Source: a virus
Taxonomy: Duplodnaviria > Caudoviricetes
Length of the DNA stretch: 64,000 nucleotides
Direction: 5' to 3' (one strand)
Virus record (IMG/VR): IMGVR_UViG_3300031993_000015
The position numbers were made by a program, and so were the translations under genes. The notes beneath the pieces are model-generated. The model did not search any database. It had not been told where the DNA came from and worked only from the letters and a program-made list of their open reading frames with translations. The stretch's first letter is position 1; every line of letters starts with the position of its first letter. This document shows positions 30,608-64,000 of the stretch, one piece after another.

Positions 30608-31681
30608 ATGAACGTCCGGACAGTACAGCACAGCATGCTGAAGTGTGCGGCTATGACATACGGCGGTACTGCACCTGCTGGTACCGGTTCGTGGCGAAAC
30701 ATATTCAGGCCGCCGACACAGCCGCAGTGGAACCCGATGGGACAGGTACCTGGAGCTGTAAGGCGCTGGTTTGACAGTGTCGGCAAGCCCCAGGGCCAGT
30801 CCGGTTCTTATTTCGGTGGTTCATGGCAGAACAACCCGGTCCGCAACATCCAGGGTGATAATCAGTCCTGGCGCAGAGGCTTCCAGTCTCCGGTTACATC
30901 TGTCAGAGACATACAGGCGGATAACCAGACATGGCAACGCAAACCCTGGTTACGGCAGCAGCCGTCCATAAGGGACATGCAGGCTGACAATCAGACATGG
31001 CAGCGCAGACCCTGGGCAAACAATATCAACACAACGGCTCTGTTCCGGAAGCAGGCCGGGCTCTTCGGCAATACAATGGTCGGGCGCTGGATCACGGACA
31101 CGATGGGTCCGCACACGTTCGTGTCTGATGCGCTCGGTGCATCACCACTGGACATGATCGACTACCAGGCGCAGAAAGAGCTTGGCTGGCACAAGCCGAC
31201 TGGTGGCAGCCCTAACGACACCTACGGCCAGGAATACGCAAGGGCGCAGCAGCGTCTGGACGAAGGTCTTGCAAAGGCACAGCAGCGCCAGGCAGAGGCT
31301 CGCCAGAAACAGCTGGCGCAACAGCAGGCCCAGGCTTCGCGCAACAACGAGCGCCTGATGGCGGACTACATGGCCGGCAACAATCAGCAGCTCGCAAAAC
31401 AGAACCAGCGTGCGGCGCAGGGTCGGGCGATCACCAACAAGCAGCTGACGGATGCGAGAGGCATGGCACAGCTGAAGGTGGATGCTACCAGGCGCAACAT
31501 CGCAGGCATGCAGCAGGAGTTCGACCGCCAGGACGCCGTGAACCGCAATGTGCAAGGCATGGCCCGTGCTTTCATGCAGAGCGGCCAGGCACCGTTCGTA
31601 CAGCCTTCGCAGAGAACGCCGCAGCAGGTCGCGATGGACACCAAGTACAAGGAACTGTACGGTGGAACAAGGCCGGCCTGA
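30608..31681 (+). CDS. Q/R-rich putative internal virion protein with N-terminal SMLKxA leader
   Basis: MNVRTVQHSMLKCAA leader; three internal repeats VRNIQGDNQSWRR / VRDIQADNQTWQR / IRDMQADNQTWQR; internal FRKQAG. Confidence 0.7.
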   Translation: MNVRTVQHSMLKCAAMTYGGTAPAGTGSWRNIFRPPTQPQWNPMGQVPGAVRRWFDSVGKPQGQSGSYFGGSWQNNPVRNIQGDNQSWRRGFQSPVTSVRDIQADNQTWQRKPWLRQQPSIRDMQADNQTWQRRPWANNINTTALFRKQAGLFGNTMVGRWITDTMGPHTFVSDALGASPLDMIDYQAQKELGWHKPTGGSPNDTYGQEYARAQQRLDEGLAKAQQRQAEARQKQLAQQQAQASRNNERLMADYMAGNNQQLAKQNQRAAQGRAITNKQLTDARGMAQLKVDATRRNIAGMQQEFDRQDAVNRNVQGMARAFMQSGQAPFVQPSQRTPQQVAMDTKYKELYGGTRPA

Positions 31682-31702
31682 TCCGCAGCACACCGCAAGA
31701 AC

Positions 31703-31730
31703 AGCCCCTGCAACCCAGGGGCTTTATTTT
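31703..31730 (+). terminator. intrinsic terminator
   Basis: AGCCCCTG/CAGGGGCT stem plus TTATTTT. Confidence 0.75.
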
Positions 31731-31760
31731 ATATAGTGGAACAACAAAGGAGAACGCGAC

Positions 31761-35102: not shown

Positions 35103-35147
35103 CGCCTGACCCTCCTGCTCTTATAACTAGAACCCACGGAAGAACCA

Positions 35148-36449
35148 ATGCCAGACTTCGCTCCAGGAATCCCAAACAAGCTCAACAAAGGCCGCCTCAT
35201 GGACCTGCCCACCGATGTGCTGCTCACGCTCGTGCGCCAGCACCACCAGGCACGCAGGGCCGGCGACCACACAGACATGCGGATCGGCAACGAATCCGGG
35301 CTCTTTTCATGGGCGCTCCCGAAACACATGCCGGAGCAGCCAGGTCAGTACAGGCTCGCTGTTCCCACCAGTCTGCACAGGTATGCCTACAAGGACTTCG
35401 AGGGCACCATCCCGGAGGGCAAGTACGGTGCCGGCACTGTGACCAAGACCGAGGAGTCTCCTGTCATTCTTCTCAAGAACACGCCCAGCTACATCGAGTT
35501 TACCAGGGGCACCAGCAAGGACTCCAACGTATACCGCATGGTGCGCACAGGCAAAGGCAACTGGCTGATGTCCATCAAGGAACCCGGCCAGCCTGAGCCA
35601 GTAACCCAGTACCAGAAGGAGCACCTAAAGTCGGTTCCCATTGAGGACGCGCAGAAGCTCATAGACCAGGGCGCTACAGTGGTGCCCAAAGTGGACGGCG
35701 CAGGCGCTATAGCGTATCTTGGCAGACACGGCATCAATGTCTATGGTATACGGCCGGACAAGTCTGGGCTCAAGCCGGACTACACGGCGCACATCGGCGG
35801 TCTGTCCCAGGTGCAGGTACCGGAGGACCTGCAGGGCCAGCTCATCAGGGGCGAGCTCTATGGCATGAGGAACGGCCGCGTGATTCCAGCCAACGAACTG
35901 TCGGGTTATCTCAACAGCACGCTCCAGAACGCCATCCAGAAGCGCCAGCGCGGGCTCCGGCTCATGGTTGCGGCCCTGGCCATGAATAAGGGCAGGGACG
36001 ATTACGGGGCGCCCATGCAGGACATCGTGCGCAGACTCCACAGTCCTTCTTTTACAGTCCTGCCGAGCGCCAAGGGTTCCAGAGCCAAGCGCATGCTGAA
36101 GAACATCATGGAAGGCCGTGATCCGTACACCGGAGAGGGCGTCGTGCTGCATCTGCCTGGGAAGCGCCCCATCAAGAGCAAGATCCGGCCGGACTATGAC
36201 GTGGTCGTCCAGGACGTGTTCCAAGCTGATACCAAGGCCGCGCCGAGAGCAGGTGGCTTCACCTACAGCCTGCCTGGATCTGACAAAGTGGTCGGCCGCG
36301 TGGGAACAGGCTTCGATCACCGGATGTTGCGCGACATGCTGGAACACCCGGAAGCCTACCGTGGCCGGACGGCTCGTATCCAGGCGCAGGAACAGTACCC
36401 GACGGGTGCATACAGAGCACCCAGCTTTATTGCAATGAAGGAAGACTGA
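35148..36449 (+). CDS. ATP-dependent DNA ligase with N-terminal LigD 3'-phosphoesterase domain
   Basis: PE motifs QHHQARR..HTDMR...SWALPK...RLAV...H...YKDFEGTIPEGKYGAGTV; ligase motifs PKVDG, GEL, EGVV, KSK and OB-fold GRVGTGF. Confidence 0.88.
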   Translation: MPDFAPGIPNKLNKGRLMDLPTDVLLTLVRQHHQARRAGDHTDMRIGNESGLFSWALPKHMPEQPGQYRLAVPTSLHRYAYKDFEGTIPEGKYGAGTVTKTEESPVILLKNTPSYIEFTRGTSKDSNVYRMVRTGKGNWLMSIKEPGQPEPVTQYQKEHLKSVPIEDAQKLIDQGATVVPKVDGAGAIAYLGRHGINVYGIRPDKSGLKPDYTAHIGGLSQVQVPEDLQGQLIRGELYGMRNGRVIPANELSGYLNSTLQNAIQKRQRGLRLMVAALAMNKGRDDYGAPMQDIVRRLHSPSFTVLPSAKGSRAKRMLKNIMEGRDPYTGEGVVLHLPGKRPIKSKIRPDYDVVVQDVFQADTKAAPRAGGFTYSLPGSDKVVGRVGTGFDHRMLRDMLEHPEAYRGRTARIQAQEQYPTGAYRAPSFIAMKED

Positions 36450-37663
36450 TGGCTAAGCACAACCTCTATACATATGTTCCCAAGAAGAACACACTGAAGA
36501 CGGACGGCCTCTACGGTCCAATCGGTGACTCTGAGGAGAACCTGGCCAGGCGTTACGGCTACAGGGCTGGCTCCAAGGACAAGCTGGACATCCTGAACTG
36601 GCTGGAATCCACAGCGCCCGGTCGCTCCAGAGTCATCAGTGTTCTGACTGAGCCAATACCTGCGGATGTTTCGGAGAACATGCGTGCCTTCCGTAATTCC
36701 AGTGTGCAGGTCACGTTGCCGCCGTACACAGAGTTGCTGGACGCTGGGGTTATCGAGCGGCCGATCTATAGGAGCAACGTGCATGGTCCTGGTCTGATCC
36801 CTGCGAAGCGGATTTCTTACAGGAAGCTCCAGTGGAAGAGGCCGAACAACACGCCGCTGGTGTTCAAGGGCATTCGGCATTACATGCTGCCTACAGTGGA
36901 CGGACATATTCCGCCGGAATATCTGCTGGCGATTGCTGTGATGAGCCAGGAGGACGGCATGCAGAAGGATGCCTCCATGTCTCCTGACGAGCGCAGGTTG
37001 CGGCGCCTTGCCCGGCCGTTCTATCCAGCTGTTGGACGCCGTTCTTGGGAGCATGTCAACCAGGTGAAGCAGAACGCCGAGATGATGACCCAGGGCCTGG
37101 AGCACCGGCCGCTGACCCTGCAGGAGAAGGCCGCCATCTATTTCCACGACTGCGCCATCCGTCAGCGCGGTACAGGCAAGGAGCACGGCAAGTATGGCCG
37201 GGAGACGGCCATTCCGCTTTTGCTGTCTACCGGTATCTTCAACGACAAGCAGCTGAAAGAGATCGGGCAGGCCATTCTGGAGCACGACACACTGAATGCC
37301 ACCGGGAAGAAGTTCTCCAATAGAACAGGCGAGGTGCTGGCATCTGGTGACGCGAATACGCCGGACCTGCCGTGGCTGTTGAACAAGTTCTACAACTGGC
37401 AGCTCCAGAACAATCCGGACAAGGACACGTGGCCGGCGGATATCTACGAGACGGCCATCGAGGAGTTCGGCAACAAGTCCACGGAGAAATTCCCTGCGCT
37501 GTACAACAAGTTCCACGGGGACCGTGTCCAGAAGCTGCGTGACCAGATCGACAGCATGTCCCAGGATGATATGTGGAACATGGTGCAGAAGTACCGCCGT
37601 AAGCACCACCTGAGCGAGTTGGATGAGCGGCTGGGCAAGCCACCGATGTTCCAGCCGGTGTAA
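36449..37663 (+). CDS. two-domain protein with C-terminal HD-family phosphohydrolase domain
   Basis: H...FHDC...EHG...AILEHD...GDA metal-binding pattern; MQKDAS linker between the domains. Confidence 0.7.
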   Translation: MAKHNLYTYVPKKNTLKTDGLYGPIGDSEENLARRYGYRAGSKDKLDILNWLESTAPGRSRVISVLTEPIPADVSENMRAFRNSSVQVTLPPYTELLDAGVIERPIYRSNVHGPGLIPAKRISYRKLQWKRPNNTPLVFKGIRHYMLPTVDGHIPPEYLLAIAVMSQEDGMQKDASMSPDERRLRRLARPFYPAVGRRSWEHVNQVKQNAEMMTQGLEHRPLTLQEKAAIYFHDCAIRQRGTGKEHGKYGRETAIPLLLSTGIFNDKQLKEIGQAILEHDTLNATGKKFSNRTGEVLASGDANTPDLPWLLNKFYNWQLQNNPDKDTWPADIYETAIEEFGNKSTEKFPALYNKFHGDRVQKLRDQIDSMSQDDMWNMVQKYRRKHHLSELDERLGKPPMFQPV

Positions 37664-37759
37664 GGGTTAATTTCTGTTTCTGCAGTTTTGTTGCAGATTT
37701 ACGAGTTAACCCTGCTCGTACTGCAAACTTTGCGCCGGTTGCCGCAAAGTTCTCAGTAG

Positions 37760-37782
37760 ATTTTCAACCTGAAGTTCAAAAT
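37760..37782. repeat. 23-bp pseudo-palindrome copy 4
   Basis: ATTTTCAACCTGAAGTTCAAAAT. Confidence 0.8.
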
Positions 37783-37873
37783 CCGGTTCCCACATTTTCA
37801 TAGGGACTTTTGGGGCACTTACGCCATTTTTCTGAGGCACTTTTGTAAGTGCCTATTTTTGTGTAGTTTAGGG

Positions 37874-37902
37874 CTTAAAATAGGGGGAAAATGCGGCATA
37901 GT
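37874..37902 (+). promoter_or_regulatory. phage-type promoter copy 2 (CTTAAA-N17-CATAGT)
   Basis: Matches the repeated motif; upstream of ORF 37949. Confidence 0.65.
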
Positions 37903-37948
37903 AAGATGTCCCTGTATTTCGTAAACCCAACTGCAAAGGAGGTGTCAC

Positions 37949-38390: not shown

Positions 38391-38412
38391 GGTCTCGTTC
38401 CAAAGACAAACA

Positions 38413-38449
38413 GGGCCCGATGTAGTGGAGAAACATCGGGCTCTTTTTT
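38413..38449 (+). terminator. intrinsic terminator
   Basis: GGGCCCGATGT/ACATCGGGCTC stem plus TTTTTT. Confidence 0.8.
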
Positions 38450-38461
38450 AGCCTGTTTGAG

Positions 38462-50410: not shown

Positions 50411-50792
50411 GCCGAAGGAATCGGTTCCACGCTGGTACAATCTGATGAAGATTCATGAGAGACTGGCATCGTCTGAGAAACCAAAGATCAAGAAGGGCGA
50501 TACCGTTTACTGGATCAACACGGAGTGCGGCGACTGGTGGAACAAGCACTATGAGACCAATCCTGTACTGTTTCGCGGCACTGTCAAGACGAAACACAGG
50601 GACGGCATGGTGCTCGTTGTCTGGGAACCCAATGAGTGGACAGACGACGAGAACTGCAGCGAAATTCCAATGTCCCCAACGGATCTGTACAAGGATCCTA
50701 TGAAGTGCATCCAGGACTGGCTTCAGGAGAACCGTAAGGAGCTTGAAACACAGCTGCAGATCATACAGGAGGCAGTCGATGAAAACGGTTAA
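50391..50792 (+). CDS. SH3/KOW-like barrel family protein
   Basis: IKKGDTVYWI...FRGTV...LYKDPMKC; close paralog of 49692. Confidence 0.75.
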   Translation: MATRTSKPKESVPRWYNLMKIHERLASSEKPKIKKGDTVYWINTECGDWWNKHYETNPVLFRGTVKTKHRDGMVLVVWEPNEWTDDENCSEIPMSPTDLYKDPMKCIQDWLQENRKELETQLQIIQEAVDENG

Positions 50793-51999
50793 AGGTGCTT
50801 ATGGCGAGGCACTTATCTACACAGATCTGGTAGACGACAAGAGCATTGACCAGGTCAAGCTCCTGATGGACCAGCCGTTCGTCAAGGGTCAGCAGGTTCG
50901 TATGATGCCGGATATTCACGCGGGTGTCGGCTGTACGATAGGAACCACCATGACCGTAAACGACAAGATCTGTCCAAACCTCGTCGGCGTCGATATCGGG
51001 TGCGGGATGCTGGCCGCGAACATCGGCAAGGTCGATGTTGATTTCGATAAGTTCGACAAAGCGGTTCGCGCCCTGATTCCCAGCGGTATGAATATCCGCA
51101 GTTGGGTGTCACCGGACATGTTCAAGTACATGGAGATGCTGCGCATCGACACATCGCTCTGGTGCAGTGACAGCATTGATGTGGATCGCGCCGAGCTGTC
51201 CATGGGAACACTTGGAGGTGGCAACCACTTCATCGAGCTCAACCGTGCGCAGAGCAACGATGCTGTATGGCTGGTCATACATACCGGCTCCCGGCACCTG
51301 GGTCTGGAAGTGGCGAATTACTATCAGAAGCTCGCCATAAAGGAACTCAAGGGATGTAAGTGGTCCAGTTCGGCAATCATCGAAGAACTGAAGCGCCAGG
51401 GCAGGCAGCGCGAGATACAGGCGACTCTGCAGAAGATGAAAGCGGAGGCGTGCAATATCCCAGATGCGCTGTGCTACCTGGAGCACGAGTCTTTCCAGCA
51501 CTATATGCATGATATCGAGATTGTGCAGAACTATGCAGAGTTCAATCGCGATTGCATCATGTACACACTGTGCGCCGCAATGGGTTGGAAGCCGCGCTTC
51601 TCGTTCCATACCAAGCACAATTACGTGAGTATGCGCAGACGCATTCTGCGCAAAGGAGCCGTGTCCGCTGAGCGGGGTGATATGCTTGTCATTCCTATGA
51701 ACATGCGAGATGGCAGCCTGTTGTGCCAAGGAAAGAGCAACCCGGACTGGAACTACTCGGCGCCGCATGGCGCAGGTCGCATCATGTCCCGTGCCCAGGC
51801 CAGGAACAACATCGACTTGGGGGACTACGCACGGACGATGGAGGATGCAGGCATCTGGACTTCTTCGGTCAATCTTGGCACACTCGATGAAGCGCCCCAG
51901 GCTTACAAGCCCATGGAGAGCATCGTCGAGAATATCCAGGATACTGTGAAGGTTCTGGATATCCTGAAACCGATCTACAACTTCAAAGCATCGGAGTGA
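50779..51999 (+). CDS. rtcB: RtcB-family 3'-phosphate/5'-OH RNA ligase
   Basis: MPDIHAGVGCTIG, VGVDIGCGM, GTLGGGNHFIE, IHTGSR, HNY, RKGA, SAPHGAGR, DEAPQAYK; AGGAGG RBS. Confidence 0.95.
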   Translation: MKTVKGAYGEALIYTDLVDDKSIDQVKLLMDQPFVKGQQVRMMPDIHAGVGCTIGTTMTVNDKICPNLVGVDIGCGMLAANIGKVDVDFDKFDKAVRALIPSGMNIRSWVSPDMFKYMEMLRIDTSLWCSDSIDVDRAELSMGTLGGGNHFIELNRAQSNDAVWLVIHTGSRHLGLEVANYYQKLAIKELKGCKWSSSAIIEELKRQGRQREIQATLQKMKAEACNIPDALCYLEHESFQHYMHDIEIVQNYAEFNRDCIMYTLCAAMGWKPRFSFHTKHNYVSMRRRILRKGAVSAERGDMLVIPMNMRDGSLLCQGKSNPDWNYSAPHGAGRIMSRAQARNNIDLGDYARTMEDAGIWTSSVNLGTLDEAPQAYKPMESIVENIQDTVKVLDILKPIYNFKASE

Positions 52000-53278: not shown

Positions 53279-55162
53279 ATGGCTTATTACGATCTTTCAG
53301 GTGGCGCACCCTTCGGCGGAAGGATGAACCCCTTCCGTACATACAGCAACTACATATACCCCAAGAACATAGACCAGGTTCTCATCTGGGCCGAGTGGTT
53401 CTGGGAGCGCAACGCCAAGTACCGCACCTGCATCCAGAAGTGCATCAGCTACTTCGTATCCGGCATCAATGTGATCCAGATGGACAAGAAGGAAGCTGCC
53501 GATTCGCAGGCTGTCGAGTCCCTGCATGACATGCTGGTTGACGAATACGACCTGTTGAATCTCATCAATACGGTCGGTGTGGAACTGGCTGCGATGGGCA
53601 ACGTATTTGTCTCCTGTGAACGCCCGATCAGCCGTTGGCTGCTGTGCCCTGAGTGCGACTGGATGATGGCGCTGCGGCAGCTGACCAGGGGCGTCGAGTT
53701 CGAGTGGGACGGAAAGCAGTTCACGGGAACCTGCCCGAAGTGCGGTCGCAAGGTCGTCTACAACATCCACGACGATCCGACCACGGACGAATACGGCCGC
53801 AAGGTCCGGTTCATCTTCCGTGCTCCGCAGGACATGTTCGTCCAGTACAACCGCCTGACCGACTCTTTCCAGTACTTCTACAAGATTCCGGATGATATCA
53901 AGAACGCCATCAAGCGCGGTGAGATGGCTTATCTGCTGAATACCCCGAAGGCGTTCCTGGATGCCGTGCATCAGGATGGCCTGGTCAAGTTCCCGGAGGA
54001 CATGTTCTTCGCGGCGCGTACCAGAACGCTGACCCCGCTGGACGAACGGTACAAGGGCTGGGGCGTTCCGCTGTTTATGACCAGCTTCGACAATTTCATC
54101 CGGCTGCAGCATCTCGACAAATTCAATGAGGCCGTCACGATGGACTACATCGCGCCGGTCCGTATCATCAGTCCCAGACCGCAGAACATTGCGGCGTCCG
54201 CACACGATCCCAACAGGCTGCCCATCGGCGGCGGTCAGTTCATGTCCTTTATCCAGAACGGCATTCGTCGTGTCAAGGACAACCCGACGACCTGGCTGGT
54301 CAGCCCGACGCCTGTCGAGTACCAACTGATCGGTGGCGAAGCCAAAGAGCTGACACCCGTGGACCTGATGGAATGGTATGTGACCCAGATCCTGTCCGAT
54401 ATGGGGATCCCGCAGGAGTTCCGCCAGACGACTTTCCAGGTCGTTGCGCCGTCTATGGGCATGCGCATGTTCGAGCGCCAGTGGCGGCCGAACACGAAGC
54501 CGATGGATGCGTTCACGCGGTGGGCCGGCGAGAAGATCTGCGACTACGAGAAGTTCGCCAACATGCGTGTCACGCTGGATGTCACCAGCTTCGTCGAAGA
54601 CGACATGAACAAGCAGATGCTGTTCCAGCTGATGACCGGCGGCCAGATCTCCAAGACGAACGTTCTGAAGACACTCGGTGTGGACTTCGAGGAAGATCTC
54701 AAGATGCGCATCAACGAGATGAAGAAAGAGCGCGAGCAGTTCACCAAGGAAGACAAGGCACAGCAGGACCAGGAGATGGTCGGCTCGGTGTTCCCGCCGC
54801 AGGGTATCGCCGGCGTTATGCAGGCGCAGGGTGTCATGGATGCCCAGATGGCTGCGCTGCAGCCACAACAGCCACAGCAGCCCGGAGCCCCGATGGGTCC
54901 TGGCGCACCGGCTGCACCTGCGCCGGTTCCGGCCAGCGACACGGAAGGTGGCGGACAGCCGCTGGGCAGTGTCTGGGAACAGGGTGCGCAGGAAGCGCAG
55001 AGACTCTACAACGCGCCGCCTAACGTCCGCCGTCAGGAACTGGTCAACATGAAGGCGACCAATCCTGAACTGCATGCGGCTGTCACACAGCAGCTCCAGA
55101 ACATGCGCCAGCAGGTCGCTTCGGATGCCGTGGCCCAGTCCCAGATGCCACAGCCGCAGTGA
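53279..55162 (+). CDS. probable portal protein with zinc-ribbon insertion
   Basis: AGGAG RBS; 627 aa; portal-like pattern (helical N-terminus, MGNVFV, GWGVPLF...L..L...DYIAP.RII, GIPQEF, ISK..VL..LGVDFEE); heads the virion gene cluster. Confidence 0.62.
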   Translation: MAYYDLSGGAPFGGRMNPFRTYSNYIYPKNIDQVLIWAEWFWERNAKYRTCIQKCISYFVSGINVIQMDKKEAADSQAVESLHDMLVDEYDLLNLINTVGVELAAMGNVFVSCERPISRWLLCPECDWMMALRQLTRGVEFEWDGKQFTGTCPKCGRKVVYNIHDDPTTDEYGRKVRFIFRAPQDMFVQYNRLTDSFQYFYKIPDDIKNAIKRGEMAYLLNTPKAFLDAVHQDGLVKFPEDMFFAARTRTLTPLDERYKGWGVPLFMTSFDNFIRLQHLDKFNEAVTMDYIAPVRIISPRPQNIAASAHDPNRLPIGGGQFMSFIQNGIRRVKDNPTTWLVSPTPVEYQLIGGEAKELTPVDLMEWYVTQILSDMGIPQEFRQTTFQVVAPSMGMRMFERQWRPNTKPMDAFTRWAGEKICDYEKFANMRVTLDVTSFVEDDMNKQMLFQLMTGGQISKTNVLKTLGVDFEEDLKMRINEMKKEREQFTKEDKAQQDQEMVGSVFPPQGIAGVMQAQGVMDAQMAALQPQQPQQPGAPMGPGAPAAPAPVPASDTEGGGQPLGSVWEQGAQEAQRLYNAPPNVRRQELVNMKATNPELHAAVTQQLQNMRQQVASDAVAQSQMPQPQ

Positions 55163-55170
55163 GGTCTGCC

Positions 55171-57306
55171 ATGACACTGAATGAACTCATCAAGCTCGCC
55201 AACGCCAATCAGGTCCAGCCGATTCAGCCACAACAGCCCCAGCAGCCGCAGCCTCCGAAACCGACAGCTGCGGCTCAGCCATATAACGCGCAGCAGGGTC
55301 AGCCTACTCCGCAGAAGAACGGTTACGGGTACACACGCAGTACATATACTATTCCGCAACAGTATGCCCAGCATCAGAACGCGGACGGCTCGCTCACGAA
55401 GTTCAATCAGCAGGAATACAACGACTGGCAGAATAACGTCAAGAATTGGGAAGCACAGCGCAAGGCTGATCTGGAAGCCCAGGGTATCCAGCTGACGGAT
55501 CAGAACAAGCATCTGTGGAATCATGCGGCGGCTTGGAACTATATCAATCAGAAACGTACCGATGCGCAGGATACCGGTCGTCATTGGTGGAAACCCTGGA
55601 CATGGTTCCAGGATGCTCCGGAGCAGTTCAGGCAGGCAACCAACAACTGGGATCCTGTGGAGATGGAAGCTGCGAAGGCCAGCAGTCAGGGCTATCAGAT
55701 TGGTACGCAGCAGGATATTATGCTGAACCGTGCTGAGCATGCGAAGGTAGCAGATCATTATATCAATAGCCTTGCAAATAAGTTTGTTCTTGGTGATTAT
55801 AAAAATCAAGCCAATAAGGAGTTTGCAAATAGTCTTGTTGATATGGGCGTGGATCCACATGATGCTATAGATACTGTTTTCAAAAGCAATGCCGAAGTCA
55901 TGTTCCAGGATAACACACCTGGTAATGAAAACAGCTGGCGTAATATTCTGCTGCGGGAAGGTGTCGGTCTCGGCGAAGCGTTTTATGGTGCGGATGCGCC
56001 ACAGACATATCTGCTTATGAAGGGTATGGGGCAAATTCCATATGTTGGCAAACACCCATTAGCAGCTACGATAGGTCTCGGTGCTGGTATTCCGTTTGGT
56101 TCCCGTATGGTACAAGCCTATATGACAAACGGGAATCCGCAGGCCGGTCTTTTCTTAGGCATGAACAGTAATAGAGAATACGAGAATCTGTATAGAGACT
56201 GGTACGGTGATGATGCTGCAAATGCGACATTCCAGCTTGGCATGCTACAGAATCAGAACGGAGAATATACAAATGCCTGGGATGTAGAGCACGGCGGTAA
56301 TAATCCTGCAAACTATGCGGAATATACATCATGGGCGGCTGGCAAAGGCTACAGCGGAGATCAGCTCCAGGATCCAGCTGTCATGAAGCAGTGGGTGCAG
56401 CGTTCCATAGACCAGGGAACGCCTGTAGCTGCTATCATGGAAACACCTATGTTCCAGAATCTGACTCCTACTGACAAGGCGCAGTTTGCGGTTGACATGC
56501 TGAAGAACCGTGTGCTTGGTGATACGGGTATGTTCAAGCTGTTGAAACAGAAGTACTGGGATAATATGTCCGAGGCAGAGATGCTCGCGGATGCTATGCG
56601 TAATGACAAGTCCGGTGTTATAGCAGATACCATTGGTGAGTTCTTTGCTATGAACGACACAGCTACTGTTCTCAAGTTCATTGAGATGAACGCTGGTGAT
56701 GGTACTGGTGGATCGGTGGCAGACACGAGTAACCTGTTCAAAGCCTTCCAGGATGGCATGGTTCAGAATCTGAAGAACAACCCAGATCAGACGGGTGCCA
56801 TGATGCAGGGTCTTCTGAATCTTCAGGCAGCGAAGAGTGAAGCAGGTGGTGCAACGCTTGCAAATGACTCACAGGGTGTTGCAGCCATAAAGAAAGCGTT
56901 TACACAGGCGCTTGCAGATCCTGATTTTGTAAACGAGATGTCAGATGACAAATTACTGGAACTTGCTGAACTTTTTGCAAATAACGGTAGCGCTGCTGGT
57001 GGTATGGATATGCTGGGAGATGAATGGGTTGAGCTTGCGAACACAGCCGAAACCAATATCCGAAATAGAGTCAGCGAAGCCTTCTTCAACAATCCACTCA
57101 AGAACGGCCCGAAGATTGCCGGTCTCTGGTTGGCATCCAAAGGTTTCGGCGGGATGGGACAGTTCGCCAGCAACCCGTGGATCTTCTACAGCGTTGCGCT
57201 GTCTTTGCTTCTCGGCGGTGCGCTTATGCTGACCAGTGGCATCGACGAAGATGACGAGGAAGAGGATGACTACCACAGGGCTCTTAAAGACAATCCCTGG
57301 TCATGA
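55171..57306 (+). CDS. putative internal virion/ejection protein with hydrophobic segments
   Basis: GAGGT RBS; MTLNELIKLA leader, Q/P-rich N-terminus, Gly-rich hydrophobic segments and a C-terminal TM-like helix. Confidence 0.65.
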   Translation: MTLNELIKLANANQVQPIQPQQPQQPQPPKPTAAAQPYNAQQGQPTPQKNGYGYTRSTYTIPQQYAQHQNADGSLTKFNQQEYNDWQNNVKNWEAQRKADLEAQGIQLTDQNKHLWNHAAAWNYINQKRTDAQDTGRHWWKPWTWFQDAPEQFRQATNNWDPVEMEAAKASSQGYQIGTQQDIMLNRAEHAKVADHYINSLANKFVLGDYKNQANKEFANSLVDMGVDPHDAIDTVFKSNAEVMFQDNTPGNENSWRNILLREGVGLGEAFYGADAPQTYLLMKGMGQIPYVGKHPLAATIGLGAGIPFGSRMVQAYMTNGNPQAGLFLGMNSNREYENLYRDWYGDDAANATFQLGMLQNQNGEYTNAWDVEHGGNNPANYAEYTSWAAGKGYSGDQLQDPAVMKQWVQRSIDQGTPVAAIMETPMFQNLTPTDKAQFAVDMLKNRVLGDTGMFKLLKQKYWDNMSEAEMLADAMRNDKSGVIADTIGEFFAMNDTATVLKFIEMNAGDGTGGSVADTSNLFKAFQDGMVQNLKNNPDQTGAMMQGLLNLQAAKSEAGGATLANDSQGVAAIKKAFTQALADPDFVNEMSDDKLLELAELFANNGSAAGGMDMLGDEWVELANTAETNIRNRVSEAFFNNPLKNGPKIAGLWLASKGFGGMGQFASNPWIFYSVALSLLLGGALMLTSGIDEDDEEEDDYHRALKDNPWS

Positions 57307-57337
57307 CGCGGAACCTTTTATACATGAGGTATAAATA

Positions 57338-58186
57338 ATGGCACATAATCCGATTTCGACAGGACTTCAGAGATACAAGGCAGTGACCCTCAACCCGATT
57401 GGCCACTCTGCCCTTATGGGCACGACCGCGTTTGGTCTTGGTGCTCTCGGTTGGAATCGCGCCACGGAAACAGCGCGTTCCCTGCTTCGTACTCCGATCC
57501 ATTACATGACAGGCATATCGTACGAGGACTTCGACAAGGAAGTCGATGACATCAAGAAAGACAAGAAGATGAGATACATCATACCAGGCTCTGTCGGGCT
57601 CGGCGTGCTTGGTCTCAGTCTTGCTTTTTGTCACAGACCGAATGAAGAATGGGGCGGTCTTCTTCGCTGGAACGCCAAGCCGAATGGCAAGATGGAGTCC
57701 CACGACATGGGTGGCGGCTACGGATACGTGATGCCCGGCTCCCAGAACCTGACCAAGACAGCATCTGCCATGAACAAGCTGGCGAGCGACATCTTCAATT
57801 ACAGCGGCTATGTTCCGCCTTTCGATTTCAGCCAGCAGGTCAATGTCCCGTACGCCAAACAGGAGTTCTTCTCGAATGATCCGTTCCTGAAGAACGATCC
57901 GTATGCGATGAACTTCGGCAAAGCCATTCTTACCAGTGCTCAGATGCAGAACGGCGCGGCTAATGTACCAATGGGAACCATTTACGACACAGCCGTGGAC
58001 AAGTTCAAGACTAAATTCAGCCTTGGCGGTGTCGTCGGCGTAGCTGCGAAGACGATGTTCGCCAACACTGCAGCGAGACTGTTCACGACTGCTCTCGGAG
58101 CCGTAACAGGTCTGTCCAAGGAGAACCAGGACAGGATCGTTGAAGCCGGAACCTGGGCCGGTGCCATCAAGTCAATTATCAGTTGA
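57338..58186 (+). CDS. putative virion protein with Gly-rich hydrophobic helices
   Basis: GAGGT RBS; internal TKTAS and NKLAS motifs. Confidence 0.7.
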   Translation: MAHNPISTGLQRYKAVTLNPIGHSALMGTTAFGLGALGWNRATETARSLLRTPIHYMTGISYEDFDKEVDDIKKDKKMRYIIPGSVGLGVLGLSLAFCHRPNEEWGGLLRWNAKPNGKMESHDMGGGYGYVMPGSQNLTKTASAMNKLASDIFNYSGYVPPFDFSQQVNVPYAKQEFFSNDPFLKNDPYAMNFGKAILTSAQMQNGAANVPMGTIYDTAVDKFKTKFSLGGVVGVAAKTMFANTAARLFTTALGAVTGLSKENQDRIVEAGTWAGAIKSIIS

Positions 58187-58195
58187 GGAGACGAT

Positions 58196-58540
58196 ATGAA
58201 CATACAAACAGTACGAGATTCGATGGTCAAGCGGGCTGCTATTCCTGGCGTTACTTATGTCGGGAAGCTACTTGGCAGTATGTTTGCTACGGGTTCCGAT
58301 GCAGTTACAAACGGTGCTTTGTATCTGCTCGGTGCTGCTGCAGCATCCGGTATAGGTATCGGCGCCTTTGGTGCGCACATCACGTCCCACGGAAAACAGG
58401 ACGAGGATACGGTAAAGAAAGAGTACGAGAACGAGCGTCTGAAAGCGGATGTCGGCTATGTTGCCAGCCGTCTGGAGGACGAATACAACCGTTCCAAGAC
58501 CGCAACCAAACCGAAAGCCGCGAGAGTCCTGAATGTCTGA
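58196..58540 (+). CDS. putative virion protein with SMVKRA leader and one hydrophobic helix
   Basis: GAGGAG RBS; MNIQTVRDSMVKRAA. Confidence 0.75.
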   Translation: MNIQTVRDSMVKRAAIPGVTYVGKLLGSMFATGSDAVTNGALYLLGAAAASGIGIGAFGAHITSHGKQDEDTVKKEYENERLKADVGYVASRLEDEYNRSKTATKPKAARVLNV

Positions 58541-58994
58541 TACCGTTGATGAACCTATCTGCATAAGCGCAGCCGGTGCGCGACTGCTCACAGAGGATGA
58601 CCTGCCGGGTCGTGAGAAAGAAGACGACGGCAGCATCAAGCTGAGCAACAGCGACGCGCTCTGGTCCTATAGGGAAGAACACAAGATCCAGAATGTGCAG
58701 GTTAAGCAGTCCGATTGCAACCTGCCCATCGCGGATGATGAGACGCTGGCGAAGGCATTCCGGCTGAGTACCGTGCCACACTCCGAGATGTTCTGGCTCT
58801 CACCGGAGGACACGGAAGCACTGGAAAAGTACAACCAGATCATTCAGGCTGCCTATGACGGAAAAGTTATCATAGTAGACGAACAGAAACAATATGATCA
58901 GAGCAAGGGCAAGTTCATGGTGTGGCTCCGTTACGACGAGGTCGGCTGGGAACTCCATCCGCGCTTTGAGTTTATACGAGAGGAGCGAAAATGA
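58533..58994 (+). CDS. hypothetical protein in the virion cluster
   Basis: Overlaps both neighbours; typical codon usage. Confidence 0.72.
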   Translation: MSDTVDEPICISAAGARLLTEDDLPGREKEDDGSIKLSNSDALWSYREEHKIQNVQVKQSDCNLPIADDETLAKAFRLSTVPHSEMFWLSPEDTEALEKYNQIIQAAYDGKVIIVDEQKQYDQSKGKFMVWLRYDEVGWELHPRFEFIREERK

Positions 58995-60034
58995 GCAATC
59001 CAGCTGCAGCATGGGGCGATAGCCGCCAGGGCTCATGGTTCAACACGTTCAACCCGCTCTCGCAGGTCTTTCATCAGACTGACAGGATTCCTGCGTGGTG
59101 GGTCAACAATATGTTTCCGCATACGAAGGGCGGCCAGCGTGCTGCCCATCTGACTTTCAAGGCGGGCGCCGATGCTCTGATGGCCGCCGGCCTGATTGCG
59201 CTGTGGCGCGGGATGTCCCATGTGAATCGTATGTCGGAACTCGCCAAGAGCGATAATCCGGCGAACGGCATGAAATCTCAACTGTCCACAACGTTTGCAG
59301 GATCTCTTGATCCAGAGAAGCAGACGAAGGAGGCATCGGCGGATGCTCCGAATACACTGGGCCAGCCTGCCATTTTCTCAGCAGCTAATGCACTTAGCAC
59401 AGCTCTTCCTATCGGAGCTGTGCTTCTGGCTACCAGCCTTGCTTATAAGGCGACTGATGACTATCTGGACAGCAAGCGGAACAAGGCGCTGGATGCCGCT
59501 ATCGGCAGCAAGGAGAACATTCTGAAGCGCCTTATCAAGACACGTTCCAGACTTGCCAAGGGAAATGCCTCTGATTCCGAGGTTCGCAGAGCGCTCGGTG
59601 GTATGACCAATGAGGATCTGTATGTGAAGCAGGCGGCTCTTGGTAAGCAGGCTGATGGTTTTGTCAGTGGCGCCAAGGATACGATGCGCGGTACAGTTGG
59701 CGGATTCGCTGCTCTGAGCTGTTTGGTTCTGGGTGCCGCTGCGGTCGGTTCCTACTATTACTTCAGCAAGGCGGATGAGAATAACATCCGGTATCGTGCC
59801 ATGAAGAAGGGCCTCAAGGAGTATTCCCGTATGAAGTCTGGATTCACGCCGGTCGCGATCATTCCGACAAAGTCCCGCAAGTTCTTCGCAGACATCGACG
59901 AAGAAACTCCACAGCGCAAGAAGAAAGAAGTTGCGGCGGCACCTGCGCAGGTCACAGCTCCTGTCGAGAGCGTCCGTACGGAACAGCCTGTTCTGACTGA
60001 GACATACAACAAGCCAATTTCACTTACACTGTAA
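58991..60034 (+). CDS. putative virion protein with three hydrophobic helices separated by KxA motifs
   Basis: GAGGAG RBS; TKEAS, VKQAA and GKQAD lie between repeated hydrophobic-helix units. Confidence 0.72.
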   Translation: MSNPAAAWGDSRQGSWFNTFNPLSQVFHQTDRIPAWWVNNMFPHTKGGQRAAHLTFKAGADALMAAGLIALWRGMSHVNRMSELAKSDNPANGMKSQLSTTFAGSLDPEKQTKEASADAPNTLGQPAIFSAANALSTALPIGAVLLATSLAYKATDDYLDSKRNKALDAAIGSKENILKRLIKTRSRLAKGNASDSEVRRALGGMTNEDLYVKQAALGKQADGFVSGAKDTMRGTVGGFAALSCLVLGAAAVGSYYYFSKADENNIRYRAMKKGLKEYSRMKSGFTPVAIIPTKSRKFFADIDEETPQRKKKEVAAAPAQVTAPVESVRTEQPVLTETYNKPISLTL

Positions 60035-60052
60035 ATATAGGAGTTACAACTC

Positions 60053-61747
60053 ATGAATCTCAATCGCATTCACAAGAGCATGCTCAAGCGGGCAGACTTT
60101 CTCGATGAGCTGAAATATTATGCCAAAGGTCTTGGCATGTTGAGCAGCGATGACGTCGCTGATGCTTACAAGAACTCAATCGACAATCTCAGTACTGGCA
60201 TGGCGAATGCGTATACTGGGACTCGTGACGCAATCAACAATGGTGCGCAGGCCGTCGCCAATACATACAACGGCGCTGTCGATAACCTGGCGACTGGTAT
60301 GGCGAATGCCTACACGGGAACTCGCGATGCTGTGAACCGTGCTGGCCAGGCTATCGCTGACACTTACAATGGCGCGGTTGATAACCTGTCCACTGGCATG
60401 GCGAACGCATACATCGGCGGCCGTGATGCGATTAACCGTGGAGCCCAGGCTGTCGGCGATGCATACAACGGAGCCGTGGACAACCTTTCCACCGGAATGG
60501 CGAATGCCTATCTTGGCGGCCGCGACATGGTCAACCAGGCTGGTCAGGCCATCAACAACGGAATCAATGCCGCCAAGCAGACAGGTCAACAGATCGCTGA
60601 TGAAGCCAAGTATTATGGCAAAGGTCTTGGCATGATGGATGCCAATGACATGACGGCGGGTATCAACCAGTTCTACAACGCGGCCAGCGATGCGGCTGCT
60701 CCCGCAATCAACGCCGGACAGCAGGCTGTTCAGGCTGGTCGTACTGCCGTCGGAAACGCCAGAGATGCCGCCGGTCAGGCGATCAATCGTGGCGCACAGG
60801 CTGTGAACAATACCTACAACAGCATGATGAACAGAGGTCAGCAGCTCTGGGATTCCGCGAAGCAGAAAGGTCAGCAGATCGCTGATGATCTGCGATACAC
60901 CGGCCAGGGCCTCGCGATGGATGCCCAGGATACCTGGAATGATATGAAGCGCACTGGTCAGGATGTCCGCAGAATGGCTGGAAACGAAGCCAGAGCGGCG
61001 GGCCAGGCCATCAACAATGGTGTGCAGGCTGTGAATAACGGCATGCAGGCTGTGAACAATGGTATCCAGGCTGGTGTCAATGCCGGTGTCAACGCCGGTC
61101 GTGCTGCTGGCCAGGCTGTCCAGAACGGTGTCCAGGCTGCAGGTAACGCCGTCGGCAACGCCTACGACAAGGCTTCCGACTGGATGTCCGGCGCCATGTA
61201 CGGCAACACCTACCGCAACGCGATGAACTCCATGCAGGATGCGCAGAACGCTCGTGTCAATCCGAGCTACGCTGACAACCCGGCCATCCGCCGTCGCGCC
61301 TCTGACGAAAACGTCCGTCAGATGCAGCAGTACATGCAGCCGCAGATCGCGGCCGAGAACAACGATCAGGCGATGCAGCAGTGGGCGCAGGGCATGCAGC
61401 AGATGCAGCGCAACGGCGTCCAGGGTGCCAACCAGTACTCTGCGAACCCGGCTCCCGCTATGGGACGTCTCGGCGGCGCCGGACAGTACATGCAGCAGCG
61501 CCAGAACGCCAACACGAACCTCGGTGGCGCCGGCCAGTACTTCGCCAACCGCGCTCAGGGCATGCGCCGCGACAACGCCAGACAGGGCATGCAGCAGTTC
61601 TGGGGCGGCATGAACCGCCAGATGCAGAACCTGCGCACTCCGCAGCCCGGCGCCAACACGACCGGCAGCTACATGCCTCCGCGCATGGCCAATAACAACA
61701 TGCAGCAGCGCATGAGAAACTTCCAGAACAGCATGCGCCAGTTCTGA
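60053..61747 (+). CDS. low-complexity repeat protein with SMLKRA leader (putative internal virion protein)
   Basis: AGGAG RBS; 33-aa repeats and a Q/N/M/G/A-rich C-terminus. Confidence 0.8.
   Translation: MNLNRIHKSMLKRADFLDELKYYAKGLGMLSSDDVADAYKNSIDNLSTGMANAYTGTRDAINNGAQAVANTYNGAVDNLATGMANAYTGTRDAVNRAGQAIADTYNGAVDNLSTGMANAYIGGRDAINRGAQAVGDAYNGAVDNLSTGMANAYLGGRDMVNQAGQAINNGINAAKQTGQQIADEAKYYGKGLGMMDANDMTAGINQFYNAASDAAAPAINAGQQAVQAGRTAVGNARDAAGQAINRGAQAVNNTYNSMMNRGQQLWDSAKQKGQQIADDLRYTGQGLAMDAQDTWNDMKRTGQDVRRMAGNEARAAGQAINNGVQAVNNGMQAVNNGIQAGVNAGVNAGRAAGQAVQNGVQAAGNAVGNAYDKASDWMSGAMYGNTYRNAMNSMQDAQNARVNPSYADNPAIRRRASDENVRQMQQYMQPQIAAENNDQAMQQWAQGMQQMQRNGVQGANQYSANPAPAMGRLGGAGQYMQQRQNANTNLGGAGQYFANRAQGMRRDNARQGMQQFWGGMNRQMQNLRTPQPGANTTGSYMPPRMANNNMQQRMRNFQNSMRQF
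60165..60560 (+). repeat. four 99-bp (33-codon) coding tandem repeats
   Basis: DNL(S/A)TGMANAY units recur at about 60184, 60283, 60382 and 60481. Confidence 0.85.
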
Positions 61748-61759
61748 TTGGAGGTTCCT

Positions 61760-61867
61760 ATGAATCTTCCAGTCGTTTATACACACATGTCTGTGGTCTC
61801 CAAGGAGATCCCGGACAAGGTCATAAAATCCAAAGTGCGCAACTTCAACGATATTGCGCCAGAGTAA
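61760..61867 (+). CDS. 35-aa hypothetical protein
   Basis: Translated by hand; GGAGGT RBS; fills the gap between virion genes. Confidence 0.5.
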   Translation: MNLPVVYTHMSVVSKEIPDKVIKSKVRNFNDIAPE

Positions 61868-61878
61868 GGAGACTCAAG

Positions 61879-62817
61879 ATGAATATCGAACGAATTAAAA
61901 ATTCGATGCTCAAGACAGCTGCAGCTCATGTCAGCATTTCGTATCCCTGGGTTATCCATAGTGATGGTCGTGTCGAGGGGTATGGACAGGCCCCTACCAT
62001 AACGACAACTGGAATGCCTGACATATCCAATGGTTTTGGTGGTAACACCCAGGACAGTGGAAAATACGATTACGAAGGCAACTACCAATTGCAACGGGCA
62101 GCAGAAGCGGCGGATCGTGCAAGACAGCTGGAACTTTATGGTCCAGCCGACAACATGTCCAAGTACAATGAGATATACAATTCCGCAGTTCCAATGGAGA
62201 AAGCACGTCAGATCAATCAGATCAACGAGATGTCTCTGCAAAATCCCGTTGCAGCTGCTTACAATAAACAGCAGTCATCCAGTATGCTGTCGCCACGACA
62301 GCGTGCTTATAATAACGGTGCGAGGGTTTTGAATACTCTCGGAAGTATGATGGACAGAGGTCTCAATCGTATCGGCGAAATGTACGATGCCAATCTGACC
62401 AGAGCTAAAGAAGCGCAAGGTCTTACACCTGCTCAGATCCATGGACCGTCAGCAGCCGAATATCAAAAGGGTCACGAGATCTACGGCCCAAATGATACTA
62501 CGGGCTTCATGACACCGGTACGCAACTCACCGCTGTGGGAGAAGACACCACAGGACTACGCAAGAGATGCTGAAATGGCCAAGCGCAACAAGAAATGGGA
62601 TGCCCAGAGTAAGAAACGCAGAGCTATTTGGGATGCGCAATCAAGGGCTCGTCAGTTCAAGAGAAACCAAGAACGCTTCGGTAGTTACCTGGATGATGCA
62701 CGCAATGCATGGTCGCCCGAAGAACGTGATCGCGCTTTGATGAAGGCACGTCTCCTGCCCCCAAGAGATGCATCTGATGAGTTTACGCAGCATGTTTGGT
62801 TCCCTGGAGAAATTTGA
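61879..62817 (+). CDS. putative internal virion protein with SMLKTA leader
   Basis: AAGGAG RBS; MNIERIKNSMLKTAA. Confidence 0.75.
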   Translation: MNIERIKNSMLKTAAAHVSISYPWVIHSDGRVEGYGQAPTITTTGMPDISNGFGGNTQDSGKYDYEGNYQLQRAAEAADRARQLELYGPADNMSKYNEIYNSAVPMEKARQINQINEMSLQNPVAAAYNKQQSSSMLSPRQRAYNNGARVLNTLGSMMDRGLNRIGEMYDANLTRAKEAQGLTPAQIHGPSAAEYQKGHEIYGPNDTTGFMTPVRNSPLWEKTPQDYARDAEMAKRNKKWDAQSKKRRAIWDAQSRARQFKRNQERFGSYLDDARNAWSPEERDRALMKARLLPPRDASDEFTQHVWFPGEI

Positions 62818-63539
62818 TGCCAGACACCACCGGTACACTCAACAATCTCGTCAGGGCTCAGCAGAAGTTCATCGCGAACGTTCTGGATGAGAAGCCCACA
62901 CAGATCTACAGGCTGGACGATTACAAGCAGATCAGGAATGCGCTGTTCGACAACGTGAAGAACGCTGTGCAGAAGCGCTTCCCTCTGTTCAATGATCGCT
63001 ACACCTTGGCTGTTGAGGACATCGACTATGATGACCCTGACGAGATCGACATCACGAAGCAGAAACAGTGCATCCTGGAAGGCAAGTCCTGCGACCGTCG
63101 CCTTCGCGGATCCTGGGTGCTTCGTGATGCAGCGACTGACAAGGTCGTGAGTAAGACCAAGCGCATGACTCTGATGCGCGTGCCCTACATGACAGACCGT
63201 GGAACTTTTATCCGCAATGGCCACGAGTACGCCTTCACGAATATCATGCGCCTGGAACCCGGTGTGTACACGAAGAAGCGCGACGACGAGATCTCCGCAC
63301 AGTTCAACGTGCAGAAAGGGACCGGCGCTGGCTTCAATATGTTCCTGACACCGGAAACAGGCATCTTCAAGATCAAACGAGGAACTACCAGCTGTCCTGC
63401 TTACACGGTATTCAAAGACCTCGGTGTGACCGACGACCAGATGCAGGAAGCCTGGGGACAGGAACTGTTTGAGAAGAACAAGAAGGCAGGCACGGACGAG
63501 AAAGCTCGTCAGGCTGCCTCCAAGATCTACAACATGTGA
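62817..63539 (+). CDS. DNA-directed RNA polymerase beta subunit, stand-alone N-terminal fragment (240 aa)
   Basis: LMRVPYMTDRGTFIRNGHEYAFTNIMRLEPGVY matches the RpoB block IPLMTxxGTFxINGxERVxVSQLxRSPGV; upstream QCILEGKS..RRLRG matches the beta N-terminal block; the ORF stops at 63539. Confidence 0.82.
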   Translation: MPDTTGTLNNLVRAQQKFIANVLDEKPTQIYRLDDYKQIRNALFDNVKNAVQKRFPLFNDRYTLAVEDIDYDDPDEIDITKQKQCILEGKSCDRRLRGSWVLRDAATDKVVSKTKRMTLMRVPYMTDRGTFIRNGHEYAFTNIMRLEPGVYTKKRDDEISAQFNVQKGTGAGFNMFLTPETGIFKIKRGTTSCPAYTVFKDLGVTDDQMQEAWGQELFEKNKKAGTDEKARQAASKIYNM

Positions 63540-63546
63540 GAACATC

Positions 63547-64000
63547 ATGCAGACATACGCAGAGTTCAGAAAGACAGCACAGACTGTGACGGACGTGTGG
63601 ACGCCTGGTATGATGACGCCTCAAGAGGCTGCTGATTACCACAAGTCTGTGCAGGAAGCCAACAAGATCAGCGACGCATACACATACACTGTTCCAGACG
63701 ATTCAGATTTCGATGACGGCGGTCCGACCTATTTCGATTTGAAGAGACAGGAAATGGAAGATGCGCGTGCTGCTCGTTTTGGCGAAGAACACAGGTTTGC
63801 AGAAGATGCATCGGACATACTGTCTGATGATGGTCCTGGCGAGTTCGGTGAAGATCTCGGAGCACCTGCTGAGCCGCCATCTGTTCCCAAGACACCGATT
63901 CCGCCTAAGCCGCCGACGGTGCAGACCAGGACTACGCCGAATGTGTTTGTAGCCACGAATACAGGTGCTGATCTGAATAAGATGTATCAGAATGCAACGA
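63547..64000 (+). CDS. partial putative internal virion protein (MQTYAEFRKTA leader), runs off the window
   Basis: Translated by hand; open to the window end; acidic and Pro-rich. Confidence 0.7.
   Translation, partial: MQTYAEFRKTAQTVTDVWTPGMMTPQEAADYHKSVQEANKISDAYTYTVPDDSDFDDGGPTYFDLKRQEMEDARAARFGEEHRFAEDASDILSDDGPGEFGEDLGAPAEPPSVPKTPIPPKPPTVQTRTTPNVFVATNTGADLNKMYQNAT

Follow-up and report, generated by a model that had tools for sequence, protein, structure and literature searches.

A hydrophobic-x-Lys-x-Ala motif in the head proteins of a 178-kb tailed phage as the probable cleavage site of its prohead protease

The stretch of DNA analysed here (the window, 64,000 nucleotides) comes from a tailed virus (Duplodnaviria; Caudoviricetes; IMG/VR record IMGVR_UViG_3300031993_000015), and is the reverse strand of positions 73226-137225 in one contig of 178,489 bp with 53.6% G+C. 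Many proteins of its head module carry a short motif with the core hydrophobic-x-K-x-A, and several that are otherwise unrelated begin with a shared leader peptide ending in that motif. We regard [M/L/F]-x-K-x-A-[A/S/G] as probably, at odds of roughly three in four, the sequence that the phage's own prohead protease recognises and cuts, a reading built on comparison of sequences and on a structural model. The protease would then trim an N-terminal piece of about 30 residues off the major capsid protein, chop acidic scaffold-like proteins into small pieces at 6-11 sites, and free itself at its own N-terminus and inter-domain linkers. Moreover, it would remove leaders of 5, 10 or 13-14 residues from variable internal proteins whose genes lie among those of the RNA polymerase, and split composite proteins into their modules. 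The best reading overall is of a proteolytic maturation code in the style of T4 and phiKZ with a new specificity. Shared leaders ending in a head-protease motif are already known from T4. New here are the Lys-x-Ala specificity preceded by Met, Leu or Phe, a large protease family undescribed in sequence terms, and its reach to cultured Salmonella, Vibrio and Bacillus phages, together with a T4-like leader standing alongside a different protease sequence family.

Nearly all genes of the window lie on its + strand. Sequence past position 64000 was taken from the full genome and from loci L001, L002 and L052, and is given in "window-equivalent" coordinates. The head module was set as window 53279 to window-equivalent 84068, on the basis of gene position and of homology to virion proteins of Salmonella phage Arash, and its landmarks are as follows.

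53279..55162, + strand: portal homologue (BLASTP to the Arash gp204 portal, E 1.7e-45), which starts the head module and is without an N-terminal motif
62817..63539, + strand: RNA polymerase beta N-terminal fragment, a conserved landmark with 73-86% identity in relatives; a hypervariable slot starts just 3' of it
window-equivalent 66017-70741: RNA polymerase beta/beta-prime fusion, 1,574 amino acids (aa)
window-equivalent 72563-74410: RNA polymerase beta-prime C-part
window-equivalent 79309-80766 (L001:3235-4692:-): predicted protease, 485 aa
window-equivalent 83109-84068: major capsid protein

A multisubunit RNA polymerase in three pieces sits inside this module, which otherwise includes several proteins of unknown family. 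Most head-module proteins have no match in PHROGs or Pfam, and a megablast of 53279-61747 against phage records gave none. The genes run from the portal to the protease, an acidic multi-site protein and the capsid protein; the Arash locus is ordered alike, with the portal, a polymerase fusion, a second polymerase gene, the protease homologue gp222 and the capsid protein gp226 in turn.

For the statistics, we used 199 genes on the main strand and compared the 24 head-module proteins with the 175 others. In the former, 48 copies of [LMFIV]-x-K-x-A were counted, as opposed to 15.3±3.9 in per-protein shuffles, and the latter are at the level of chance (47 against 51±6.6 shuffled). The earlier note on this DNA, made from its letters alone, had set enrichment of K-x-A in virion genes against a frequency no higher than in non-virion ones, and it is the enrichment that was found, in head-module proteins and not elsewhere. 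Its motif, written as K-x-A with a small or acidic residue following, stands, though it had missed the extra hydrophobic position two residues before the lysine. With a longer form of the motif, in which Gln is also permitted at -2 and a small or polar residue follows the Ala, the counts are 46 against 9.0±2.9 shuffled in head proteins and 25 against 25.6 in the others. This form falls within the first 25 residues of 12 of the 24 head proteins, as compared with 4 of the 175 others (Fisher p 7e-10). In an unbiased scan of all 400 gap-1 residue pairs in head proteins, K-x-A was the top outlier (103 against 62.7), L-x-K came second and M-x-K sixth, and P-x-E was also among the six strongest. The same scan found no enrichment of A-x-K, R-x-A or K-x-S in head proteins, and K-x-A was unremarkable in the non-head proteins. 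Around the head K-x-A sites, position -2 is rich in Met, Phe and Leu, +1 in Thr, and +3 in Ser, Ala and Gly.

That such a pattern is biochemically meaningless, a product of gene duplication, of helices rich in Lys and Ala, or of an mRNA signal at gene starts, we consider very improbable. The scaffold-like proteins are Ala/Glu/Lys-rich helices, and the stretch of the protease from residue 234 to 280 even has matches among designed coiled coils in the PDB. However, shuffles that keep the composition of each protein still leave a 3- to 5-fold excess, and the reversed pair A-x-K shows none. The leader-bearing proteins are not detectable paralogues, their leaders use different synonymous codons under unconserved upstream DNA, and enrichment in head but not tail proteins recurs in phages with proteases only about 26-28% identical.

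The prohead protease, whose identification the earlier note had proposed as a check, is predicted at window-equivalent 79309-80766 from a gp21-like fold, homology to gp19 of Bacillus phage G, and motifs in its own N-terminus and linkers. An AlphaFold model gives a confident domain at about residues 50-230, with a domain predicted local distance difference test (pLDDT) score of 80-92. Structural comparison of the model with T4 gp21 (PDB ID: 5JBL) gave a Z of 11.0 and a root mean square deviation of 3.2 Å, with 149 of 164 residues aligned; the next unrelated fold scored Z 4.5, and the proteases of Epstein-Barr virus, human cytomegalovirus and Kaposi's sarcoma-associated herpesvirus scored Z 3.7-4.0. 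By hhalign, the protease matches phage G gp19 at 98.5%, and this protein has been listed as a head maturation protease (PMC12484599). Weaker leads are a match to PHROG 18299 (E 0.004) and a language-model score of 0.92. Single-sequence search of the PDB with the protease gave nothing relevant. A profile search of the PDB returned designed coiled coils only, through the Lys/Ala-rich helix just mentioned, and was set aside.

The protease carries an invariant double site at residues 27-38, G-L-D-K-T-A followed by M-x-K-R-A-S, and the linkers 233-273 and 418-442, which the model gives with low confidence, contain more K-x-A-S sites. A site at residues 16-50 is kept in 87 of 96 diverse full-length protease representatives. 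This layout, as read from the sequence and the model, is that expected of a self-processing prohead protease. Homologues fall into more than 120 metagenome clusters, on contigs of 150-195 kb, one related contig being labelled human gut metagenome. With a profile made from 20 homologues, the count at 50% identity came to 3,234 representatives, and 2,472 of these matched at E ≤ 1e-10.

Intein/homing-endonuclease insertions (Hint, LAGLIDADG) were seen in the protease gene of relatives P0009, P0020, P0032-P0037, P0072 and P0104, and in the RNA polymerase genes of L006, L007, L047, L048 and L049; the polymerase fusion of the relatives bearing them reaches 1,965-2,575 aa, as compared with 1,574 aa here. 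In L048 (ENA ERZ27280627 k141_410147), the protease gene matches its database protein only with TAG=Q, and in L008 (IMGVR_UViG_3300045988_176357) the ORFs (open reading frames) are fragmented under the standard code. Some members of the clade appear to read TAG as Gln.

Beyond the protease, the motif accumulates in proteins that resemble T4 gp22 and the phiKZ inner-body proteins. The protein at window-equivalent 74421 (730 aa) has nine sites, with six in residues 146-269, the one at window-equivalent 77524 (590 aa) has nine in its N-terminal half, and the acidic 381-aa protein directly after the protease has eight. Orthologues of these multi-site proteins (29-72% identity) retain 6-11 sites, placed in corresponding regions, and in the acidic protein the motif Lys and Ala are several of its few invariant residues. 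Counted by alignment column, the K and A of the motif are invariant in 33 of 76 cases, as compared with 100 of 356 other K/A columns (p 0.007).

The major capsid protein was identified by its match to Arash gp226 (E 2.7e-14) and to the solved capsid protein of phage G (PDB ID: 6WKK; E 7e-12, hhalign 97%). Here, an invariant Lys-28 sits in D-[ML]-x-K-x-[AG]-G-L, just before the region homologous to the solved protein, and the capsid proteins of Arash and Vibrio phage D181 have G-L-x-K-E-A-G-A at residue 27, which is the equivalent site. An AlphaFold2 model of the capsid protein from a four-sequence alignment had a mean pLDDT of 28.8 and was not used, and its identity rests on the sequence and profile matches.

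In this distribution, the sites mirror the substrates of T4 gp21 (PMC9026906) and of phiKZ gp175 and SPN3US gp245 (PMC10052503), which, with the shared fold, argues for a cleavage code. As in the T4 gp21 system, the classes of site-bearing protein are the capsid protein, a many-site scaffold, the protease and internal proteins. The phiKZ-like phages (phiKZ gp175, 201phi2-1, SPN3US gp245) have multi-motif N-terminal propeptides and a protease that cuts itself (PMC10052503). In their heads there is a virion RNA polymerase, multisubunit and split, along with numerous internal or ejection proteins; here, the polymerase genes lie in the head module. Differences are also evident. Compared with T4 gp21, the protease is without a detectable sequence relation and carries a C-terminal extension of about 250 residues; the T4 motif is [L/I]-x-E, whereas here it is hydrophobic-x-K-x-A; and there are several leader classes, with the putative cargo genes placed among RNA polymerase genes. 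In contrast to phiKZ-like phages, the genome is smaller (178 kb), the polymerase is a beta/beta-prime fusion, and there is no Peptidase_S80 match beyond the language-model lead. Cleavage in phiKZ-like phages falls after [S/A/G]-x-E or A-x-E; in the head proteins here, A-x-E was not enriched (75 against 62.4 expected).

The leaders and internal sites of the window are found in the following genes.

30608..31681, + strand: gene 30608, with a class-1 leader at 30608-30652 and a second site, F-R-K-Q-A-G, at 31043-31060
55171..57306, + strand: 711-aa head-module protein with a 10-residue leader ending L-I-K-L-A (55171-55203)
57338..58186, + strand: 282-aa protein in which L-T-K-T-A-S and M-N-K-L-A-S form two neighbouring internal sites (57749-57787)
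58196..58540, + strand: 114-aa Gly/Ala-rich protein with a class-1 leader at 58196-58240
58991..60034, + strand: 347-aa protein with three internal sites at 59321-59338, 59621-59638 and 59639-59656
60053..61747, + strand: 564-aa protein with a class-1 leader at 60053-60097
61879..62817, + strand: 312-aa protein with a class-1 leader at 61879-61923
63547..64000, continuing to window-equivalent 64179, + strand: first gene of the variable slot, with the class-2 leader M-Q-T-Y-A-E-F-R-K-T-A and its site at 63565-63582

Four of these ORFs (30608, 58196, 60053 and 61879) begin M-N-[VIL]-x-x-[VI]-x-x-S-M-[LV]-K-x-A-[AD], a 15-residue leader that we call class 1. The earlier note had singled out these four N-termini, with Lys at position 12 in each, along with the variants at 55171 and 63547 and a set of internal sites, and all were found where it had placed them; indeed, each of its predictions that can be tested by computation came out as it had expected. 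A strict regular expression for class 1, run over six frames of the whole genome, matches only these four ORF starts. Beyond the leader, BLASTP among the four proteins gave no significant match (best E 0.004). It is the peptide that is under selection, as the leaders vary in synonymous codons and share no conserved DNA upstream. Five more head-module proteins, at window-equivalent 64278, 64913, 70778, 71741 and 74421, have hydrophobic-x-K-x-A at the N-terminus.

A survey of the loci around the conserved beta N-fragment in viral and metagenome contigs gave 253 distinct ORFs, 120 with the motif in their first 30 or so residues. The motif Lys favours position 3, 8 or 11-12, which corresponds to leaders of 5, 10 or 13-14 residues. 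Class 1, in the form M-N-h-x-x-h-x-x-[SA]-M-x-K-x-A (h, hydrophobic), was found in 13 further ORFs of relatives, and class 2, M-(Q)-T-Y-x-E-F followed by K-x-A, in 20. The minimal M-x-K-x-A is the commonest leader form in relatives, with 19 of the 120 ORFs, and the distant relative L015 has a shared leader family of its own with two motif copies.

Individual genes illustrate how the leader may change as its end is kept. Orthologues of 58196 swap leaders, being class 1 in L010, class 2 of the M-T-Y-x-E-F-K-K-Q-A type in L013, and shorter in L012, L014 and L032, and every one of these leaders ends in the motif. Similarly, the 61879 homologue in L010 (200 aa) has a different leader with the motif still at its end, and orthologues of 55171 in L010, L012, L013 and L014 all start with a leader ending in hydrophobic-x-K-x-A. 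The 58991 protein has no N-terminal motif in this genome; its orthologues start M-[NR]-K-x-A. No relative of protein 60053 was found among the viral contigs searched.

The hypervariable slot (62817 to window-equivalent 66017), which runs from the beta fragment to the polymerase fusion, holds, across L010-L046, 73 distinct ORFs in 47 families, and 51 of the 73 have an N-terminal motif. Its gene content differs even between genomes with 82% identical polymerases, and in this it resembles the variable internal-protein loci of T4-like phages. In L012 (IMGVR_UViG_3300045988_174965), no homologue of the polymerase fusion was detected within about 10 kb after the beta N-fragment, and what follows that fragment is a pair of ORFs with leaders and a protein of 1,707 aa whose family is unknown; judging by these genes, the head module is rearranged in that genome.

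The class-2 leader has a counterpart in T4. T4 IPII and IPIII start MKTYQEFIAE (taken from NC_000866), and residues 4 and 7 of that leader matter for targeting, and 8 and 10 for processing (PMC9026906). The class-2 leaders are likewise 10 residues long and keep Tyr-4 and Phe-7, with the I-A-E end replaced by K-x-A. The resemblance to the T4 tag claimed in the earlier note is real for class 2 only, which has T-Y-x-E-F, including residues 4 and 7, in common with IPII and IPIII. N-termini of the form M-Q-T-Y-x-E-F were seen twice (63547 and window-equivalent 71741), as compared with 0.002 expected by composition. This comparison with the T4 leader was made after the fact and is only suggestive of common descent or convergence. 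In a broader sense, the T4 capsid-targeting sequence is a leader common to unrelated, fast-evolving internal proteins and ends in the head-protease motif, as do the leaders here.

By this analogy, there is about an even chance that the longer leaders (class 1 and class 2) also direct proteins into the prohead. The earlier note had seen in them a portable amphipathic tag; there are at least three length classes, however, and a minimal M-x-K-x-A cannot form an amphipathic helix. A possible but somewhat less likely account accepts the cleavage and treats the leaders as disposable propeptides, serving as spacers or activity masks, with the mature parts deciding what is packaged. It is favoured by the five-residue motif being the sole universal element, by the minimal form being the commonest in relatives, and by 58991 having no leader at all in this genome. 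Yet unrelated proteins of a single genome share leaders of 13-15 residues that reach well past the motif, in which positions 1, 3, 6, 10 and 11 form a fixed hydrophobic pattern; distinct leader families recur across genomes, with lengths clustered at 5, 10 and 13-14, and L015 has a family of its own. Moreover, class 2 retains both of the residues that T4 needs for targeting.

Gene 30608, which sits 22 kb ahead of the head module, offers a junction of a different kind. Its protein consists of the leader with a first K-x-A, a 136-residue insert (about residues 15-147), a second K-x-A, and then a module starting G-L-F-G-N-T…, whereas in an alignment its relatives P0122 and P0123 have the same leader joined straight to that module. 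The earlier note had envisaged release from polyproteins, and this one case, with a module inserted exactly between two K-x-A sites, accords with the idea. K-x-A on both sides of the insert fits the look expected of a polyprotein that would be cut apart. As for the insert itself (window 30650-31050), it is Gln/Trp/Arg-rich with an internal repeat, Q-A-D-N-Q-T-W-Q-R-[KR]-P-W, and is absent from both known relatives.

The same junction bears on where the cut would fall. With or without the insert, the Ala is directly followed by the shared module, a mild argument for cleavage at that point, and we lean towards a cut after Ala, with Lys at P3 and Ala at P1, over one after Lys. A cut after Ala would accord with the P3/P1 rule seen in T4 (h-x-E), in phiKZ ([SAG]-x-E) and, as h-x-A then S, in herpesviruses. 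Herpesvirus assemblin, whose fold superfamily is that of the protease here (Z 3.7-4.0), cuts at [V/L/I]-x-A followed by S. P1 would then be Ala, P1' small (Ser or Ala) and the second determinant P3, as in the herpesviruses, but in a bacterial virus, and with Lys rather than an aliphatic residue at P3.

The pattern extends to cultured phages. A tblastn search with the protease found Vibrio phages D181, D148 and D69 (187 kb), Salmonella phage Arash (181 kb) and phage G, at 26-28% identity. Arash gp222, Vibrio D181 VPHD181_0277 and phage G gp19 are true homologues of the protease, and phage records label such homologues only 'structural protein', 'hypothetical protein' or 'gp19'. In Arash, we counted 38 sites in head block gp218-gp226, against 5.9±2.3, and 7 in the tail block, against 4.5; the corresponding counts in D181 are 36 against 5.9±2.4 and 2 against 2.2. 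In phage G, gp9-gp21 have 14 sites against 3.8±1.9, which is weaker than in Arash and D181. Our literature search found no cleavage data for phage G and no paper describing such a motif, nor any for 'KXA' with 'prohead'; the phage G paper gives no cleavage specificity (PMC12484599), and the Arash paper nowhere mentions a protease or cleavage (PMC10585845).

The Arash tryptic virion proteome includes the polymerase subunits and gp218-gp226, with the subunits gp206 and gp216, homologous to those here, which mass spectrometry placed among the most abundant proteins of the virion (PMC10585845). In that preparation of 116 proteins, several multi-site proteins were covered at 100% and the capsid protein at 86.64%. 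Trypsin cuts beside the motif Lys, which leaves tryptic coverage blind to cuts there.

Full coverage of this sort can be turned in favour of the main alternative, that the motif is an uncut docking peptide for scaffold or cargo on the inner shell, portal or core, with the multi-copy proteins as multivalent binders. Encapsulin cargo-loading peptides are a model for it. The many motif copies per scaffold-like protein and the existence of minimal five-residue leaders speak for docking, and, as one motif could both load and be cut, it may partly overlap with cleavage. Docking fails, however, to account for sites at domain boundaries and disordered linkers of the protease, at the N-terminus of the capsid protein, which is itself the shell, and around the inserted module of gene 30608. 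Each element of this layout also has its counterpart among the substrates known for T4 gp21 and phiKZ gp175, and the coverage argument loses its force beside Lys. Overall, we judge docking improbable.

Several points weigh against cleavage by the prohead protease as the explanation. The cutting itself is something we infer, from the motif distribution, its conservation, and the protease fold and homology, and the Arash data, which are from trypsin only and at the level of genes, fit processing and no processing alike, neither showing nor excluding it. The head module is likewise defined from genes, by position and homology. Neither the protease nor its 20 homologues gave a Pfam match (Peptidase_S77, S80, S78), hhalign of the protease against T4 gp21 was negative, and the candidate catalytic Ser and His residues are named by alignment column only (H57, H120, S172 and H198, invariant in the 20 homologues). 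As regards the substrates, the capsid site in this genome is K-Q-G rather than K-x-A, the site of the RNA polymerase fusion is missing from some relatives, and processing of the minimal M-x-K-x-A leaders would remove just 3-5 residues. Finally, the column-wise conservation of sites is modest, only about twofold, which suggests that single sites turn over with the site number kept.

As a cleavage code, the motif would give a concrete rule for a protease family that is abundant in metagenomes and has had no Pfam model or described specificity. The rule predicts the ends of mature capsid proteins, the identity of scaffolds, and which fast-evolving genes encode head-carried proteins. Such proteins are the usual place for anti-defence functions. 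Among enzymes of the same fold, known as Glu-specific (T4, phiKZ) or Ala-specific (herpesvirus), it would also represent a further specificity, for Lys/Ala. As class 2 is nearly identical to the T4 tag, one may ask whether capsid targeting predates these lineages. The leader might serve, in the manner of the T4 capsid-targeting sequence, as a packaging tag for other phage chassis, an idea with a T4 precedent. A more far-reaching proposal, which we think unlikely, is that hydrophobic-x-Lys-x-Ala is the specificity of a very large gp21/assemblin branch, from gut phages to Arash, the Vibrio phages and megaphage G, and that the T-Y-x-E-F leader is homologous to that of T4. If so, leader-directed loading of exchangeable cargo would be ancient, and the leader could serve directly as a packaging tag in the cultured phages.

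Beyond gene 30608, there are two other candidate substrates encoded outside the head module, the first of them within the window.

36449..37663, + strand: 404-aa protein with one internal site, M-Q-K-D-A-S, at 36959-36976

This protein is a weak candidate for a substrate from outside the module, having a single site in a non-head proteome that is not enriched. Far from the head module, a 310-aa protein at window-equivalent 121260-122192 has three K-x-A-S sites, at residues 107, 194 and 244, and its homologues adjoin the beta fragment in L041 and L045; it may be another candidate substrate of the protease.

Elsewhere in the window, the gene at 35148-36449 encodes a LigD-type 3'-phosphoesterase domain with a ligase-like C-terminus (Pfam E 1.5e-17; PHROG 114), and that at 50779-51999 an RtcB-type RNA ligase (PHROG 1075, E 1.7e-130).

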